Origin: a virus
Taxonomy: Duplodnaviria > Heunggongvirae > Uroviricota > Caudoviricetes
Reading direction: 5' to 3' (one strand)
IMG/VR virus record: IMGVR_UViG_2690316066_000016
Span: 1-13,194 of that record
DNA length: 13,194 nt
The position numbers were made by a program, and so were the translations under genes. This document shows positions 1 to 13,194 of the stretch, one piece after another. How positions within the stretch are numbered: position 1 is the first letter of the stretch; every line of letters begins with the position of its first letter. Below the pieces are notes generated by a model. The model searched no databases, was not told the DNA's origin, and saw only the letters and a list, made by a program, of their open reading frames with translations.

Positions 1-1
1 C

Positions 2-691
2 GCTGAGCTTACCGCTGAGCTTAACATGCGTAAAAAACAATACAACTACTATCGCGACCAGTTATTTAGTTTTGGTGCCCACGATGTTAAACGTCTGAAA
101 TTAGGAGAGCTATGTGTAATTGGAGACGGTTTGCATGGTACTCCAGAATATGACGCCAACGGTGATTATTTCTTTATCAATGGAAACAATTTAGGCTATC
201 AAAAAATATCATTTAACGATAACACAAAAAAGGTTAATGATTCTATGTTTAAAAAACACGGAATTCATTTTGACCCAATAAATACTGTTTTCCTGTCAAT
301 TAATGGCACAATTGGAAATGTTTCCTTTTACAATAATGAGAAGATCGTACTCGGTAAGTCTGTGGCCTATTTTAAAATTAAATCACCTGAACTCCACACT
401 AGATATCTTTTCTATTTCCTGCAGACCAATTACGCAAAACAGTATTTTGAAAATCAAAAAACAGGTTCAACTATTAAAAACTTAGGTTTAAAATCGTTGA
501 GAGCATTTGAAATACCTATCCCATCATACGATGAACAACTTTATATCGTCGCCACGATGGATAAATTTTACAACCTGACAAACTCCATCACCGAAGGTCT
601 CCCGCGTGAAATCGAGTTGCGCCAGAAACAATACGAATACTACCGTGATTTACTGTTCAGTTTCCCGAAACCTGAAACTGTCAGTAATTAA
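2..691 (+). CDS. hsdS: Type I restriction-modification specificity subunit HsdS, 5'-truncated by the window edge (C-terminal target-recognition domain plus conserved tail)
   Basis: Frame opens at the window edge with [22 protein letters not shown] (central conserved region) and ends ...[20 protein letters not shown], the duplicated conserved motif typical of HsdS. The ATG at 26 is internal, not the true start. hsdR follows on the same strand. Confidence 0.8.
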
Positions 692-813
692 TTGACCATT
701 GCTACCGATCGGGCCACCTTAACACCCGGTCAGTATATAGACTATTTTTTTACGCGCCGGAAGTCACTCTTAACGCCCTTCCGGCTCTTGCCAGGCGGCA
801 CAAAGGATGCGCT

Positions 814-3800
814 ATGACTCATCAAACACACACCATTGCTGAATCCAATAACTTTATCGTCCTTGATAAGTACATCAAAGCTGAGCAAACAAGCGACAGC
901 TACCAGAGCGAATCGGACCTGGAACGTGAACTGATTCAGGACCTGCGGAATCAGGGTTATGAATTTATTTCGGTAAAATCACAGTCAGCGATGCAGGCCA
1001 ACGTTCGGGAACAGCTTCAGAGCCTCAATGGTGTGGTGTTTAATGACAGCGAGTGGCGGCGTTTCACGGAGCAGTATCTGGATAACCCGAGCGATGGCAT
1101 TCTGGATAAGACCCGTAAAATCCATATCGACTATATTTGCGACTTTATTTTTGATGACGAGCGTCTTGAGAACATCTATTTGATAGATAAAAAGAATCTC
1201 ATGCGCAATAAGGTGCAGATTATCCAGCAGTTTGAGCAGGCGGGTTCTCATGCTAACCGTTATGACGTCACGATCCTGGTTAATGGCTTACCACTGGTAC
1301 AAATCGAACTGAAAAAGCGCGGCGTGGCGATTCGTGAGGCTTTCAACCAGATACATCGTTACAGTAAAGAGAGTTTTAACAGCGAAAATTCCCTGTTTAA
1401 GTATCTGCAACTGTTTGTCATTTCTAACGGCACCGATACCCGTTACTTTGCCAACACCACAAAGCGCGATAAAAACAGTTTTGACTTCACCATGAACTGG
1501 GCGAAATCAGACAACACGCTGATTAAAGACCTCAAAGATTTTACCGCTACCTTTTTCCAGAAACATACTCTGCTTAATGTTCTGGTGAACTACAGCGTGT
1601 TCGATATTAGCCAGACGCTACTGGTGATGCGACCGTACCAGATTGCCGCTACCGAACGGATCTTATGGAAAATCAACAGTTCCTATAAAGCGAAAAACTG
1701 GTCTAACCCCGAAAGCGGTGGCTTTATCTGGCACACTACCGGTTCCGGTAAAACACTGACCAGCTTTAAAGCCGCGCGCCTGGCAACAGAACTGGACTTT
1801 ATTGATAAAGTCTTCTTTGTGGTCGACAGGAAAGACCTCGATTACCAGACGATGAAGGAATATCAGCGTTTTTCCCCAGACAGCGTCAACGGCTCGGAAA
1901 ATACCGCAGGCCTTAAACGAAATCTGGATAAGGACGATAACAAAATTATCGTCACCACTATTCAGAAACTTAATAACCTGATGAAAGCAGAAAGCGACCT
2001 GCCTGTATACAATCAGCAAGTGGTGTTTATATTTGATGAATGTCACCGCAGCCAGTTTGGAGAAGCGCAGAAAAATCTGAAGAAGAAATTCAAACGCTAT
2101 TATCAGTTTGGTTTTACCGGCACACCTATTTTCCCGGAAAACGCTTTAGGCTCAGAAACGACCGCCAGCGTATTTGGTCGTGAATTGCATTCATATGTGA
2201 TTACCGATGCGATTCGTGATGAAAAAGTGCTCAAATTCAAGGTGGACTATAACGATGTGCGGCCCCAGTTTAAATCTTTAGAGACAGAAACCGACGAGAA
2301 AAAACTGAGTGCGGCTGAAAATCAGCAGGCGTTTCTTCATCCCATGCGTATACAGGAAATTACGCAATATATTCTGAATAACTTCCGCCAGAAGACCCAC
2401 CGTACTTTCCCAGGTTCCAAAGGCTTTAATGCCATGCTGGCAGTGAGTAGCGTGGATGCCGCGAAAGCCTATTACGCGACGTTTAAACGGTTACAAGAGG
2501 AAGCAGCTAATAAATCGGCTACCTATAAACCGCTGCGTGTTGCGACAATCTTCTCCTTTGCCGCCAATGAAGAACAAAATGCCATTGGTGAAATTTCCGA
2601 TGAAACTTTTGATACCAGCGCAATGGACAGCAGTGCTAAAGAGTTTCTTGACGCTGCAATTCGTGAGTATAACAGCTATTTTAAAACTAACTTCAGCACC
2701 GACAGTAACGGTTTTCAGAACTACTATCGTGATTTAGCCCAACGGGTTAAAAATCAGGATATCGATCTGTTAATTGTCGTTGGGATGTTTTTAACCGGCT
2801 TCGACGCTCCAACATTGAACACGCTATTCGTCGATAAAAACTTGCGTTTTCACGGCCTGATGCAGGCATTCTCCCGCACCAACCGCATTTATAACGCCAC
2901 TAAAACCTTCGGTAACATCGTCACTTTCCGGGATCTGGAACGCTCAACCATTGATGCCATAACGCTGTTTGGTGATAAAAATACCAAAAATGTAGTGTTA
3001 GAAAAGAGTTATGCAGAGTATATGGAAGGCTTTACTGATGCTGCCACTGGTGAAGCTAAACGCGGCTTTATGGCAGTAGTTTCAGAACTGGAACAACGGT
3101 TCCCTGACCCTGCCAGTATTGAAAGTGAAAAAGAGAAGAAAGACTTCGTTAAACTGTTTGGTGAATACCTGCGTGCCGAGAACATCCTGCAAAACTATGA
3201 TGAATTTGCCACGCTGAAAGCCCTGCAACAAATCGATCTTAGCGATCCTGTTGCGGTAGAAAAATTCAAAGAAGAACATTATGTGGATGATGAAAAGTTC
3301 GCTGAATTACAAACGATTCGTCTCCCTGCTGAACGCAAGATTCAGGATTATCGTTCTGCCTATAACGATATTCGTGACTGGCAGCGCCGCGAGAAAGAGG
3401 CTGGCAAAAAAGAAAAGTTAACTACTGACTGGGATGACGTGGTTTTTGAAATCGATTTGCTGAAGTCTCAGGAAATAAACCTGGATTATATCCTTGGACT
3501 GATTTTCGAACACAACAGACAAAACAAAGGTAAGGGCGAAATGACCGAAGAGGTCAAGCGCTTAATTCGTTCGAGCCTTGGGAACCGTGCCAAAGAAGGT
3601 CTGGTGGTCGATTTTATTCAACAAACAAACCTGGATGATTTGCCGGATAAAGCCAGCATCATTGACGCGTTTTTTACCTTTGCTCAACGCGAACAGCAAC
3701 GTGAAGCAGAAGCATTGATCAAAGAAGAAAATCTCAATGAAGAGGCGGCGAAACGCTATATTCGCACGTCTTTAAAACGCGAATACGCCACCGAAAATGG

Positions 3801-3930
3801 CACGGAATTAAACGAGACATTGCCAAAACTCAGTCCGTTAAATCCGCAATATAAGACGAAAAAACAGACGGTTTTCCAGAAGATCGTCGCGTTTATTGAG
3901 AAGTTTAAAGGTGTAGGCGGGCAGATATAA
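814..3930 (+). CDS. hsdR: Type I restriction enzyme R subunit HsdR (1038 aa), EcoR124I-like (type IC) by length and context
   Basis: N-terminal PD-(D/E)xK-like nuclease region ([19 protein letters not shown]), helicase motif I HTTGSGKT, motif [12 protein letters not shown] (DExH). AAGGA sits 6 nt upstream of the ATG. The 1038-aa length matches my memory of EcoR124I HsdR (not verified here). Confidence 0.9.
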
Positions 3931-3944
3931 TGTATTAATCCGAA

Positions 3945-3974
3945 CCTGATCTGGCAGATAGCTGTCAGATCAGG
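3945..3974. repeat. Imperfect 13-bp-stem inverted repeat immediately downstream of hsdR (CCTGATCTGGCAG-ATAG-CTGTCAGATCAGG)
   Basis: Read directly from the sequence; one mismatch in the stem and no T-tract after it, so it is not a canonical intrinsic terminator. Possibly an mRNA 3' stabiliser or protein-binding site. Confidence 0.4.
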
Positions 3975-4114
3975 ACTGAGCTAATACAAATTAATATCGA
4001 ACCGAAAATACCAACGCCTGTACCAACATTTTTCGTTTGCGATGGGTTGGAATTGGTTAGCCCTGAGAGAGTTAAAATAGCGAGAAAGATAGGTAACTAA
4101 CGGATTTCAGACAC

Positions 4115-4137
4115 AAAAAAAGCCGCTCTTGAGCGGC
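4115..4137 (-). terminator. Rho-independent terminator on the minus strand, downstream of the tRNA-Leu 3' fragment
   Basis: Plus strand AAAAAAA-GCCGCTC-TT-GAGCGGC; on the minus strand this is a GC hairpin followed by a T7 run, 17 nt after the tRNA-like CCA end. Confidence 0.6.
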
Positions 4138-4154
4138 TCGATTTGCATACGATG

Positions 4155-4185
4155 TGGTGCCGAAGGCCGGACTCGAACCGGCACG
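4155..4185 (-). other. 31-nt 3'-terminal fragment of a tRNA-Leu gene (T-arm, acceptor 3' strand, CCA); putative att core of an integrated element
   Basis: Minus strand reads CGTGCCGGTTCGAGTCCGGCCTTCGGCACCA, matching from memory the 3' end of E. coli tRNA-Leu (leuX-type). Upstream sequence has no matching 5' acceptor strand (no GCCGAAG...), so this is not an intact tRNA. An integrase gene starts 134 nt away. Confidence 0.6.
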
Positions 4186-4318
4186 GGTTATAGCGACTTA
4201 GCTTGCTTCAACAATCATCGTTAACTTGTTGAACTAGTTAGACTAAAGCTCATGACCCCGGCACATTTCACAGACTGTTTAGCCATGAAAAAGCCCCGAC
4301 AACATAACCGGGGTTTGT

Positions 4319-5527
4319 ATGAGTTTCAAGAGAGATCGTTATCTAGTTTTAGATCCCTGCGGGAATTACCTCGTGCGGATAGCTATCCCCAACTACATGC
4401 GCCACCTGTTCCAAGGGAAGCGCTACTTTATGAAAAGCACAGGGACACGCGATGTACGCCAAGCGCGATTGTTTCGGGATGCTATTGCTCTGGAATGGAC
4501 TCGCTTACGGAATCTGCTAAAGCCGCAAGGCGGCTCGTCTGTAGATCAAATCATTGATGAGCTACGCCGTGTCAGTGTGTACGCCAAGGAAGCCCCCACA
4601 TCATTTGGTGCATCAGTTCAGTCTTGCCCTTCCCTACTTAAAATGCGCGATCTGTATCTTCTCCAATACAGCGAGAAGAGAAAGCTAACGACGCTATCCA
4701 AGACCAACAAAGCCGTAGAGATGCTGTTAACCCACCTGAAAAAGAAAGATGTTCAGTTGCGGGATATAAACCGAACCATAGTTACAGGCTGGTTAGATAA
4801 GCTCAAAACTGAGCGAGCGCCCCAAACTATCCAAAACTATATAAGCGCACTGGCACAGATATGGGACCTGGCACGCAATCGCTATCACGATGCGCCACAA
4901 GACAATCCTTGGCGCGGTCATGCGCTCGAAGCAAAAAGCAGCAAGGTCAGCTATGAAGTCTTCGCACCGGGTGAGCTGGCAAAGGTCTATGCTTTGCTTG
5001 ATGACGAGATGAAAGCGGTAACGGCTATTGGTGCATACAGCGGTATGCGGATCAATGAAATATGTACCCTACGTGAAAGCAGTATTAAAACTATCGAGGG
5101 AGTTTTGTGCTTTGAGATCACCGAGGGGAAGACCAAGAGCGCGGCGCGAATCGTCCCAGTACACAGCAAGCTAATCCCCCTCGTGAAATCATTGCTCAAA
5201 ACCACACATAGCGGTTTTCTGTTCTATCACGCATCAATTACAGACCGGGCCGATGGGAAGCGCTCAACGTGGCATACGCAGCAATTCACGCGAGCAAAGC
5301 GTAAAGCTCTTGGCGAGCTTGCCGCAGAGAGAAAAGTGTTTCACTCACTCCGCCATGCTTTTGTGCAACAGCTCGACCGCGCTCAAGTGCAAGAGGATAG
5401 AATCGCGCTACTGGTAGGCCATGAGCGTGGAAGTACAGAAAGTTTCAAAACCTATTCACGAAATAGCGCCTCAACGATTGAACTTAAAAAATACGTCGAA
5501 TTGTTGTCATATAAAGACATCAGGTAG
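4319..5527 (+). CDS. Tyrosine-type site-specific integrase (phage/island integrase)
   Basis: C-terminal catalytic signature: Arg in GMRINEICTLR, HxxR box HSLRHAF, LVGHE, and a Tyr in KTYSRNS about 35 aa after HxxR. Lies next to the tRNA-Leu att-like fragment. The start is uncertain; downstream Met codons are possible. Confidence 0.85.
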   Translation: MSFKRDRYLVLDPCGNYLVRIAIPNYMRHLFQGKRYFMKSTGTRDVRQARLFRDAIALEWTRLRNLLKPQGGSSVDQIIDELRRVSVYAKEAPTSFGASVQSCPSLLKMRDLYLLQYSEKRKLTTLSKTNKAVEMLLTHLKKKDVQLRDINRTIVTGWLDKLKTERAPQTIQNYISALAQIWDLARNRYHDAPQDNPWRGHALEAKSSKVSYEVFAPGELAKVYALLDDEMKAVTAIGAYSGMRINEICTLRESSIKTIEGVLCFEITEGKTKSAARIVPVHSKLIPLVKSLLKTTHSGFLFYHASITDRADGKRSTWHTQQFTRAKRKALGELAAERKVFHSLRHAFVQQLDRAQVQEDRIALLVGHERGSTESFKTYSRNSASTIELKKYVELLSYKDIR

Positions 5528-5610: not shown

Positions 5611-6225
5611 TTACCATAGTCTAGGTTTAGCTCGGATAGCAGGAACTGTATCTGCATTTCTTTTAACAGCAGGATTCATAATTGCTCGCTTATTAAATGC
5701 TTCATCAATATATGTTTCGCAATCAGCAATAAAATCGGAATACCTTACCACTGCACAATACACTTCCTCATCGGTGTAATGCGGAACTGTTTTTTGAAGA
5801 CGATGATTACCTTGTACCAGATAAGGAAGATATAGTGTATAACCAGTAGAAATCTGCCTTAAACTCACTCCGCAGTTACATCGAAAGTCAGAACATACAG
5901 CATCGGTAAAAACTTCATTCCAGATTTCATCTCTGACGACACCTATCAATCCCGCTGGATTTTCACCCCATAGAGATGCTTGAATTTCTGAGTTCACAAA
6001 TGGACGTTGGGCGGTCTCTCTCCCGATAAGCACAACAGTAACTGTAGTATCAGCGAGATATTCCTCGCGTATCTTACGCATGATGTATTCTTCACTTACA
6101 TCAGTACTAATGTCACCGTCGCTTACGGATTTATCGATAAAAGATTCCCCACCATACGTCTCTATTATACTATCTTTTAAATCCTGTTCATTAGCATGAT
6201 GATAACTTAGAAATGTTTTATGCAT
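5611..6225 (-). CDS. TIR-like domain protein, ThsB-like (DUF1863-type); likely start at the Met codon 6225-6223, with an alternative in-frame ATG at 6237
   Basis: N-terminus KTFLSYHHANEQDL and core TVTVVLIGRETAQRPFVNSEIQASLWGENPAGLIGVV follow the ThsB/TIR-like pattern as I remember it (F-[ILF]-S-[YF]-H...D, then VLIG..T..R.[WF]V..EI with the conserved Glu). GGAG sits 6 nt upstream of the 6225 ATG. Its start overlaps the upstream gene's stop as TAATG. Confidence 0.7.
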   Translation of the reverse strand: MHKTFLSYHHANEQDLKDSIIETYGGESFIDKSVSDGDISTDVSEEYIMRKIREEYLADTTVTVVLIGRETAQRPFVNSEIQASLWGENPAGLIGVVRDEIWNEVFTDAVCSDFRCNCGVSLRQISTGYTLYLPYLVQGNHRLQKTVPHYTDEEVYCAVVRYSDFIADCETYIDEAFNKRAIMNPAVKRNADTVPAIRAKPRLW

Positions 6226-6962
6226 TAGTTGCTCCATTTATCCATGTCAATACTAAACTGGCTGGCAACACTATCTTGAAAGAATTTATTCAGCTCAGTG
6301 AAATCATTAACAAGTTTATTAAAATGATAATAGTAAGTCTGAATTTTACCGATTGGTGTCAGATGATACCTAAGAACAATTGCTTCACCATCAGGTTTCT
6401 CGTCAATTTTAACTTCATCTTTATCTGAGACGTATTTATGCCAGCGCCTATAATTATTTTGGTGCTCAGTCAGAAATGCATTTAGTTTTTTGAGCATAGT
6501 ATTCGCCAACATATATAACTCAAGATCTTTTTTCCTTTTAATATTCAGAACTCGCATCTCAACACGAATAAACTGATAGACCTCGTAGTAAGAATTAAAT
6601 ACCTCATCAAAAGCATCCTGCTGAACGTTTATTTTAAAAAGCGTCCTTTTCGTGTCGAGAAAATTCTGTATAGACTTTATGAAAAGGGCATCAGAGTTAT
6701 CAAAAAGAATATTTAAACCGCCAAAATTAAGCCGTTCAACTTTAAACGAATATTTTCTATTCATCATGCCATCTAATAGAAAGATAGCCACAATGATTAA
6801 TACAACTACAGAAAGTAGAGAACTAAGTACCCCAATATTTTGAAGTAAACGCTTACCGAAGGTTATATCTTCCGACGTTGGTAACTGAACAGTTCCCAAG
6901 AGCGCAATAACAACTATGCAAACAGACCCCCACACAACCCATCTCTTGTACATAAGCATCAT
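6225..6962 (-). CDS. Membrane protein with two N-terminal TM helices and a roughly 180-aa cytoplasmic domain of unknown family; candidate effector/partner of the TIR protein
   Basis: Hydrophobic stretches WVVWGSVCIVVIALLGTV and NIGVLSSLLSVVVLIIVAIFLL, with positive residues before TM1 and after TM2 (N-in/C-in). No family motif recognised in the C-terminal domain. Start ambiguous among three ATGs (6962, 6959, 6953); AGGA is best spaced for the 6953 ATG. Very AT-rich. Confidence 0.6.
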   Translation of the reverse strand: MMLMYKRWVVWGSVCIVVIALLGTVQLPTSEDITFGKRLLQNIGVLSSLLSVVVLIIVAIFLLDGMMNRKYSFKVERLNFGGLNILFDNSDALFIKSIQNFLDTKRTLFKINVQQDAFDEVFNSYYEVYQFIRVEMRVLNIKRKKDLELYMLANTMLKKLNAFLTEHQNNYRRWHKYVSDKDEVKIDEKPDGEAIVLRYHLTPIGKIQTYYYHFNKLVNDFTELNKFFQDSVASQFSIDMDKWSN

Positions 6963-10329: not shown

Positions 10330-11409
10330 TTAGCGGCCAGCGCGCTTGCCAGCGGAGCGCTGCGCAACCAGATCGCGGTATTGTTCGTCGTACTGGCGAT
10401 GACCGGGGCCATACCCCGATTGCAGCGCCCACTGCGAAAGCTGGTCATACGCTGCAATAAATTCAGCATGAGACATCCCGACAGGTTGCGCGGTAGGCTG
10501 GCCATGCTGGGCATAACCAGTTTGTGAACCGCCAGCCATACGCTCTTGCAGATACTGAACCGCCCGCTGCATCTGAGCAGGGTCGCCAGACATAACCATC
10601 CGCTCAAGGGTAGATTGCGTCCCGGCATCGAGCGTGCCAGCATATTGCAACATCGCGTCAACTGTACCCTGCCCTAACTGACTTTCTATGGACTGTTGAA
10701 ACTGCCCCATTAACCCTTGCAGCTCGGCGGTATACTCGACAGCCGTCCAGCCATCTTTCATGGTGCGGATCTCTTTTTTACCCGCGTTGACCATTGGCTC
10801 GATGGTGAACGTCATCCCAGGTTTCAGTACGACGTTGGTTTCACGGGAGTCATAGTGCAGCACCTGCGGTTCTTCATGGAAGCCGCGACCAATACCGTGT
10901 CCACAATATTCACGAACGACGGAGAAGCCTTCTGCTTCGACAAACTTCTGAATCGCCGCACCGATTTCGCGCAGGTTAATGCCTGGTTTGACCATGCGCA
11001 GCGCCAGGTACAGGCTTTCTTGCGTGATGCGGCACAGACGTTCGCCCATGATGGTCGGCTTACCGACGATAAACATTTTCGAGGTATCGCCGTGGAAACC
11101 ATCTTTGATTACGGTGACATCAATGTTAACGATATCGCCATCTTTCAGCAGCTTCGCATCGTCCGGGATACCGTGGCACACCACTTCATTAATAGAGATG
11201 CAAACGGATTTCGGATAGCCGTGATAGCCGAGGCAGGCAGAAACCGCGTGTTGTTCATTAACAATGTAATCATTACAGATGCGATCCAGCTCGCCGGTGC
11301 TGACGCCCGGTTTAACATACGGTTCGATCATCTCCAGCACTTCGGCAGCCAGTCGGCCAGCGACGCGCATTTTTTCGATATCTTCTGGGGTCTTGATTGA
11401 GATAGCCAT
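10330..11409 (-). CDS. map: Chimeric ORF: methionine aminopeptidase Map residues 1-222 fused in frame to 137 aa of unrelated (phage-like) sequence; native Map C-terminus (42 aa) missing
   Basis: Translation matches E. coli Map from MAISIKTPEDIEKMRVAG... through ...KKEIRTMKDGWT, then diverges to AVEYTAELQGLMGQFQQ... Nucleotide homology to map stops at about 10743. Position divergent from rpsB matches the known map-rpsB arrangement. Confidence 0.85.
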   Translation of the reverse strand: MAISIKTPEDIEKMRVAGRLAAEVLEMIEPYVKPGVSTGELDRICNDYIVNEQHAVSACLGYHGYPKSVCISINEVVCHGIPDDAKLLKDGDIVNIDVTVIKDGFHGDTSKMFIVGKPTIMGERLCRITQESLYLALRMVKPGINLREIGAAIQKFVEAEGFSVVREYCGHGIGRGFHEEPQVLHYDSRETNVVLKPGMTFTIEPMVNAGKKEIRTMKDGWTAVEYTAELQGLMGQFQQSIESQLGQGTVDAMLQYAGTLDAGTQSTLERMVMSGDPAQMQRAVQYLQERMAGGSQTGYAQHGQPTAQPVGMSHAEFIAAYDQLSQWALQSGYGPGHRQYDEQYRDLVAQRSAGKRAGR

Positions 11410-11554
11410 TAATTCTGTCCATCAGCGTCGGTGATACCGACAATATATATGTAAGTGCCGTCAATGGTATCACACCCGGGCAAATTGAGAATCATTCTGA
11501 ATTTCGCCAAACGTGCCACTGAACGTTTTCTATAATAGAAAATTCAACGTCTGA

Positions 11555-12502
<948 letters not shown>

Positions 12503-12676
12503 TAAGGCTTGATAACTCCCCCAAAATAGTTCGAGTTGCAGAAAGGCGGCAAGCTCGAGAATTCCCGGGAGCTTACATCAGTAAGTGACCGGGATGAGCG
12601 AGCGAAGATAACGCATCTGCGGCGCGAAATATGAAGGGGGAGAGCCCTTATAGACCAGGTAGTACACGTTTGGTTA

Positions 12677-12702
12677 GGGGGCCTGCATATGGCCCCCTTT
12701 TT
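12677..12702 (+). terminator. rpsB-tsf intergenic hairpin with T-tract (GGGGGCC-TGCATAT-GGCCCCC-TTTTT); attenuator or partial terminator
   Basis: Perfect 7-bp GC stem followed by five T residues, between rpsB and tsf as expected for the rpsB-tsf operon. Confidence 0.6.
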
Positions 12703-12759
12703 CACTTTTATATCTGTGCGGTTTAATGCCGGGCAGATCACATCTCCGAGGATTTTAGA

Positions 12760-13137
12760 ATGGCTGAAATTACCGCATCCCTGGTAAAAGAGCTGCGTGA
12801 GCGTACTGGCGCAGGCATGATGGATTGCAAAAAAGCACTGACTGAAGCTAACGGCGACATCGAGCTGGCAATCGAAAACATGCGTAAGTCCGGTGCTATT
12901 AAAGCAGCGAAAAAAGCAGGCAACGTTGCTGCTGACGGCGTGATCAAAACCAAAATCGACAGCAACTACGGCATCATTCTGGAAGTTAACTGCCAGACTG
13001 ACTTCGTTGCAAAAGACGCTGGTTTCCAGGCGTTCGCAGACAAAGTTCTGGACGCAGCTGTTGCTGGCAAAATCACTGACGTTGAAGTTCTGAAAGCACA
13101 GTTCGAAGAAGAACGTGTTGCGCTAAACACAGCCTGA
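12760..13137 (+). pseudogene. tsf: Elongation factor Ts, truncated: only the N-terminal ~122 codons are tsf-like, then three unrelated codons and a stop
   Basis: Translation [43 protein letters not shown]...[11 protein letters not shown] matches E. coli EF-Ts (283 aa), then reads NTA-stop. Nucleotide homology ends at about 13124; the remaining roughly 70 nt are of unknown origin. Confidence 0.85.
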
Positions 13138-13194
13138 ATAAACGGACTGTAGCTGTCGATATCAGCCACCATCACGATGATGTCGCGCGGAGTA

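Follow-up and report, generated by a model that had tools for sequence, protein, structure and literature searches.

The 13,194-nt stretch of DNA analysed here (hereafter the window) opens inside an array of 12-bp units, each encoding Thr-Ala-Glu-Leu (TAEL), in the hsdS gene of a type IC restriction-modification system, and among close E. coli relatives this array holds between one and six units. The explanation that we consider highly probable as a whole is that this is a type IC TAEL array subject to gain and loss of whole units, with each unit expected to lengthen the spacer of the recognition site by about 1 bp, in a lineage whose system is probably inactive. That specificity depends on TAEL number is textbook material dating from 1987-1992, and RefSeq already contains the protein. 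The new element is modest: population evidence for one chromosomal allele whose flanks hardly vary while its unit number ranges from 1 to 6.

The first 12 nucleotides of the window (CGCTGAGCTTAC, 1-12) are identical to the next 12 (CGCTGAGCTTAA, 13-24) at 11 of 12 positions, in agreement with the first-pass annotation, which had described two near-identical 12-mers translating as AEL-TAEL. That translation is correct in frame 2 (from nucleotide 2), which is open through 229 codons to a stop at 689-691. Tandem Repeats Finder (TRF) places a repeat of period 12 at 1-23, with 1.9 copies, 100% matches and a score of 46. In codon register the unit encoding Thr-Ala-Glu-Leu is ACCGCTGAGCTT, and the 3' end of the array occupies 1-22 on the plus strand as CGCTGAGCTT, a unit without its first 2 nt, followed by a complete ACCGCTGAGCTT; the array of the window is thus (AC)CGCTGAGCTT plus ACCGCTGAGCTT, read as (T)AEL-TAEL in frame 2. 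This proves at least two units, since a one-unit allele would have AACTGCACTT at positions 1-10, which is not the case, and a single non-repeated TAEL is contradicted by the window itself. Further copies had been suspected upstream, and the closest relatives do carry them, with three to six units in total; in the closest genomes three perfect units are preceded by a degenerate T-A-L. One part of the initial description was mistaken: hsdS does not begin with the repeats, as the window starts in mid-gene and contains the final 229 codons of a gene that has 401 in its three-copy form. Taken alone, a 1.9-copy 12-mer is weak evidence. The 11-mer CGCTGAGCTTA occurs in the window at positions 1 and 13 only (chance expectation 0.28; two or more occurrences in 6 of 200 shuffles), and two other 1.9-copy arrays in the window exceed the same TRF threshold. 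The array is significant because of its reading frame, its conserved context and the one to six perfect units in relatives. ON/OFF phase variation was considered and rejected, as a 12-bp unit preserves the reading frame.

On sequence comparison the assignment of the system to type IC (the EcoR124 family) is secure, because HsdS, HsdR and HsdM all match their EcoR124 counterparts. Type I families are defined by high HsdR and HsdM identity, hybridisation and complementation. The hsdS fragment matches Pfam Methylase_S (7.1e-23, residues 28-205 of the fragment) and the PADLOC type I specificity subunit (4.8e-70). Several complete E. coli chromosomes match window positions 1-4185 with few or no differences, and in these the gene encodes a 401-aa 'restriction endonuclease subunit S' (WP_001292892.1) with hsdM before it and hsdR after it; hsdM of the identical relatives, which lies outside the window, is directly upstream and overlaps hsdS by 4 nt, giving the order hsdM-hsdS-hsdR. 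The full HsdS of these relatives aligns with EcoR124 HsdS (7bst_A) at E=6.7e-69; near-identity covers an N-terminal block, a central block (beginning IPIPCPENPEKSLAIQSEIVRILDKFTAL) and the final 38 residues, both target recognition domains (TRDs) are divergent, and the sole internal gap, of 4 residues, falls exactly at TAEL. Of the conserved blocks, the window includes the C-terminal one and part of the central one. The window's hsdR (814-3930, plus strand) encodes an EcoR124-family restriction/translocase subunit of 1038 aa, in agreement with the RefSeq annotation of identical copies, and aligns with EcoR124I HsdR (PDB 2w00) over residues 1-1038 on 1-1038 with 2250.7 bits; ~97% of the residues are identical where the alignment was printed. 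For HsdM, the protein of the relatives scores 1147 bits against that of EcoR124 (7bst_D). A tandem tetra-amino-acid repeat in HsdS has been named as characteristic of the type IC family (PMC10030836); the locus combines such a repeat in the central region with HsdR, HsdS conserved regions and an upstream HsdM of this family. These comparisons of HsdR, HsdS and HsdM uphold the type IC-like identity proposed at first pass, and the near-identity of the conserved blocks to those of EcoR124 contradicts a placement of HsdS outside type IC.

Downstream of the array, a segment of hsdS (23-73, plus strand) has one difference from EcoR124 HsdS (L to F) and is conserved across phyla. It is followed by TRD2, the C-terminal TRD, at 74-505 (plus strand), with approximate boundaries based on the Pfam Methylase_S match and on low identity to EcoR124. 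This domain differs from the RTCG domain of EcoR124I, and the same TRD2 is found joined to other TRD1s on plasmids; apart from generic Methylase_S matches, structure and Pfam searches returned nothing solved or characterised that is homologous to either TRD. The distal (C-terminal) conserved region of HsdS (506-691, plus strand, including the stop codon) is the coiled-coil partner helix; it has a single, unrepeated counterpart of the TAEL region, and its last 38 residues are those of EcoR124 HsdS. The 122-bp intergenic spacer between hsdS and hsdR (692-813, plus strand) contains one sigma-70-like site at 719-748, a consensus match only (one found against 0.4 expected), which is a candidate for the promoter of its own that hsdR typically has in type IC systems.

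Unit numbers among E. coli relatives were obtained from the span of megablast hits, followed by direct reading of the loci. Three units are present in 12 complete genomes with the same TRD1 and TRD2 (hsdS span 1206 nt), and four in two complete genomes from one study, Z1322HEC0001 and Z1323HEC0009 (span 1218 nt; locus L003 read directly). Two units were found in loci L014-L024 and also in a more divergent 97% allele (L004; complete genome Z1322HEC0006), one unit in L025-L030, and five and six units in L013 and L011, respectively, from one draft assembly each, GCA_012568405.1 and GCA_016683935.1; the L011 array is reported by TRF as 6.3 copies with a score of 152. Draft contigs that were found via the window's integrase gene (4319-5527) and share the window's own arrangement (L008, L010, L011, L012, L013 and L014) hold 3, 3, 6, 3, 5 and 2 units. 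The first five of these, with 3, 3, 6, 3 and 5 units, show no substitution relative to the window over ~10.7 kb, and a single 12-nt indel outside the array. Across near-identical loci, hsdM, hsdS and hsdR (~6 kb) carry 0-2 substitutions and from 1 to 6 units, and none of the loci read has a broken hsdS or hsdR.

These loci display directly a perfect in-frame 12-bp array in the TRD-linking helix and the natural gain and loss of whole units. Unit number changes much faster than point mutations accumulate, as 1 to 6 units occur on near-invariant flanks and in combination with no fewer than four hsdM backgrounds; in the absence of recombination, the distribution implies at least eight independent copy-number changes. 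The comparison of related strains that the first-pass annotation had proposed as a check therefore finds one and the same pair of TRDs combined with anything from 1 to 6 units, and its suggestion of a potentially variable array is borne out by alleles of 1, 2, 3, 4, 5 or 6 units on near-identical flanks. Sampling was aimed at particular alleles, with the one- and two-unit proteins sought specifically, and allele frequencies are not inferable from it. The two-unit protein (P0001) is indexed in 403 collection blocks and the one-unit protein (P0004) is present on 15 contigs from independent samples. The 401-, 409- and 413-aa forms of HsdS had no exact match in the protein collection, and the best 120 matches of an HsdS homology search contained 1-2 strict TAEL units only, whereas RefSeq genomes and contigs hold 3-6. 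Because the protein collection misses forms of three or more units that are present in the DNA collections, protein-database counts were not used for allele frequencies.

The state of hsdM varies among the same loci. Full-length hsdM (518 aa) is accompanied by one unit (L027), two units (L015, L016, L017, L020 and L022) or three units (L002 and ten complete genomes). Strains with full-length hsdM include GCA_002511555.1 with one unit, GCA_012181745.1 and GCA_049311835.1 with two, and AMSHJX01 and S42 with three. An 8-bp deletion at 1405-1412 (AGCAGCTA; del8@1405, hereafter del8; carried for instance by O111:H21 strain 15A) is found with 1, 2, 3, 5 and 6 units, a 1-bp deletion at 498 (del1@498) with 1 and 2, a 1-bp deletion at 442 (del1@442) with 4, a nonsense mutation at codon 28 (G83A) with 2, and a nonsense mutation at codon 307 (G921A) with 1. 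One nearly invariant hsdMSR allele has thus acquired at least five independent hsdM knock-outs (L001, L003, L008-L030), an apparent number that is inflated by a look-up that prefers places with differing neighbour proteins. For del1@442, which falls in an A-run of complete genomes that come from one study, a long-read error is possible; del1@498 and del8 lie outside homopolymers. Forms with four or more units occur only beside broken hsdM, in three lineages, which are too few to test. The strong form of this association, that departures from three units occur only with broken hsdM, was rejected, as one- and two-unit alleles are found beside full-length hsdM.

The window begins inside the array and does not include hsdM; its own unit count and hsdM state come from haplotype matching. 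It has no differences from 10 of 11 del8 loci (one from L014) and at least one from every non-del8 locus, and all seven loci that share its hsdR-integrase junction (L008, L010-L014 and L024) carry del8. From this haplotype match and the shared junction we infer that the window's genome has a frameshifted hsdM, encoding 473 aa instead of 518 and lacking the C-terminal tail. In a model of the EcoKI methyltransferase, the HsdM tail (residues ~470-529) contacts the HsdS coiled coil and is thought to be central to assembly (PMC2647291). The del8 product would lose the tail that docks HsdM on this coiled coil; this frameshift and loss of the tail have probably left the window's lineage with an inactive system and a drifting array, and the spread of 1, 2, 3, 5 and 6 units in the del8 lineage is probably unconstrained neutral drift.

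As the units are perfect DNA copies of one another, replication slippage or unequal crossing-over would be expected to add or remove whole 12-bp units in frame, a molecular route that is assigned here by analogy. Each unit would displace the two domains by roughly 1 bp of DNA; two, three and four units would then correspond to bipartite sites with N6, N7 and N8 spacers. By the same kind of analogy, the spacer of the present enzyme would grow by 1 bp per unit with its half-sites unchanged, and the one-, five- and six-unit forms may be inactive or imprecise. PMC3874165 gives two units and the site GAAN6RTCG for EcoR124I, three units and GAAN7RTCG for EcoR124II, and unequal crossing-over as the origin of the switch. 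One unit is described there as just over one helical turn, which adds 0.34 nm to the distance between the domains and turns them through 36 degrees; how the coiled coil accommodates a change in one helix only is, according to the same source, not understood.

The present locus shares with EcoR124I and EcoR124II its gene order, an HsdR that is ~97% identical over the full length, an HsdM match of 1147 bits, near-identical HsdS conserved regions and a TAEL unit at the same position. It differs in both TRDs, which have low identity to those of EcoR124, and because both differ the half-sites here are not GAA and RTCG. EcoR124I and EcoR124II are encoded on plasmid R124, whereas the present locus is chromosomal, in a defence island by tRNA-Leu; its natural series runs from 1 to 6 units as against 2 and 3, and in the window's lineage hsdM appears to be frameshifted, unlike in the EcoR124 system. 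EcoDXXI and EcoPrrI (three TAEL units, N7) belong to the same family and have the same conserved regions, and their three units are the commonest complete-genome form of the present allele; the TRDs are different, and the 122-bp hsdS-hsdR gap here contains no prrC-type anticodon nuclease gene. With a fourth unit, EcoDXXI is said to have an N8 spacer and relaxed spacer discrimination. In hybrids of EcoDXXI and EcoR124I with an engineered unit number, the spacer changed as predicted (Gubler et al., 1992, as reported in PMC3874165). NgoAV of Neisseria gonorrhoeae, another type IC system, likewise carries a repeat of four amino acids centrally in HsdS that varies naturally among strains, and its natural LEAT-repeat variants have methylomes of GACN6TGC and GACN7TGC (PMC6789123). 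It differs from the present system in organism and in having LEAT as the repeat, and a downstream frameshift that shortens HsdS is a further determinant of its specificity, a feature that was not seen here.

The repeat is a family-wide feature. A scan with the central conserved region, using a two-unit query and one genome per species, recovered the motif in Gammaproteobacteria, Betaproteobacteria, Alphaproteobacteria, Cyanobacteria, Planctomycetes, Bacteroidota and others. Among species representatives there were two units in ~51 cases, three in ~20, one in a single case (L107) and five in a single case (L080, a Thiothrix MAG), a ranking that favours two units because the query had two. Extreme unit numbers are therefore not confined to E. 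coli. At the DNA level the units are identical within 50 of 78 loci; units of one locus differ by 0.45 on average and units of different loci by 1.43, and none of 2000 shuffles reaches the observed value; this within-locus homogeneity would fit continuing duplication and loss, with genome-specific codon bias as an uncontrolled factor.

The evidence bears unequally on three other readings. That the two 12-mers are a chance duplication without a role, with AEL-TAEL a coincidence, would accord with the 1.9 copies visible in the window and with the two further 1.9-copy arrays above the TRF threshold, but it has next to no probability: the repeat is in frame in a 229-codon Methylase_S ORF, its position is precisely that of the TAEL repeat in EcoR124, and two or three TAEL units are conserved in at least 70 species across phyla. 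The match in position, the cross-phylum conservation and the Methylase_S ORF rule it out. It is also very improbable that the differences in copy number are sequencing or assembly artefacts around a true array fixed at three units. Several variants do come from draft short-read assemblies, and the window, which looks chimeric or concatenated, starts inside the array; however, arrays of only 12-72 bp lie well within single reads, the 403 blocks with the two-unit protein and the 15 independently sampled contigs with the one-unit protein are hard to reconcile with error, two-, three- and four-unit forms are present in complete genomes, and the same polymorphism has been demonstrated experimentally between EcoR124I and EcoR124II (PMC3874165).

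A more serious competitor, unlikely but carrying real weight, holds that the window's strain has an active system in which the array is a working, reversible specificity switch, a contingency locus altering the target of methylation and restriction through 1-bp spacer steps. The one-, two- and three-unit alleles beside full-length 518-aa hsdM, together with intact hsdS and hsdR in all loci read, speak for it, and working variants plausibly coexist in the species as EcoR124I and EcoR124II do. Against this, the window's haplotype is that of the del8 hsdM lineage, with the deletion in 7 of 7 loci sharing its junction, forms of four or more units accompany broken hsdM only, and there is no sign of reversibility within a single strain. 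We thus favour the reading in which whole units are gained and lost in a type IC array that, in the window's own lineage, probably belongs to an inactive system. A further proposal, which we consider speculative and rather improbable, links the hypermutable array causally to the repeated hsdM knock-outs, making the array a self-destruct route and not only a generator of diversity. If this were true, slippage of the array would create a new specificity and leave the chromosome unprotected, selection would favour loss of hsdM, with which restriction and modification both disappear, and after that loss the array would drift freely to 4-6 units.

The TAEL array is a classic case in which a restriction target is altered through the length of a protein spacer and not through a DNA-contacting residue. 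E. coli strains with an 'identical' type IC HsdS can recognise different sites if their unit counts differ, and because the unit count can change the site, specificity is not transferable by protein similarity without counting units. The series of 1 to 6 units constitutes a natural strain set in which the rule of one unit per base pair could be tested by methylomes, and it is equally useful for the question of how a one-sided change in the coiled coil is accommodated, which is unexplained according to PMC3874165.

The window as a whole is a mosaic of unlinked E. coli segments: an hsd/integrase island up to ~10743, map-rpsB-tsf at 10743-13124, which is 100% identical to all E. coli, and part of recC at 13125-13194, the last 70 nt. 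None of the complete E. coli genomes covers more than 60% of the window, and the best draft relatives match it up to ~10743. A 359-aa ORF at 10330-11409 (minus strand) is a chimera in which an N-terminal part of Peptidase_M24 is fused to an island ORF. Because unlinked pieces of the chromosome are joined, the arrangement suggests concatenated contigs or a misassembly, and if so, a contig break at the repeat may be why the window starts within the TAEL array. A 12-nt indel (GCCAGCGCGCTT, 10336-10347), close to the 3' end of an island ORF, adjoins a GCCAGCG direct repeat; the window and L011 have it, L008, L010, L012, L013 and L014 lack it, and it constitutes a second in-frame, slippage-type length polymorphism.

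In relatives that lack the island, a tRNA-Leu occupies the position corresponding to window 4155-4238 and homology to the window stops at 4185; ARAGORN found no tRNA in the window. The island, which encodes a tyrosine integrase (4319-5527), thus appears to have integrated at the end of tRNA-Leu, and it resembles a phage satellite, as it also carries HNH, endonuclease VII-like and capsid-annotated genes. It contains a ThsB-type TIR gene at 5611-6237 (minus strand; Pfam ThsB_TIR 1.3e-14, PADLOC ThsB 1.2e-10) that overlaps a 245-aa ORF without a family match at 6225-6962 (minus strand). No ThsA is visible, and the two genes may form a Thoeris-like or other TIR defence pair of the integrase island. 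In relatives the type IC system is part of a defence cluster: upstream of hsdM, loci L001, L002 and L015-L027 carry an AbiEii toxin, DUF6088 (AbiEi-like), DUF4942 and the remnant of a ScoMcrA-like phosphorothioate-dependent nuclease.
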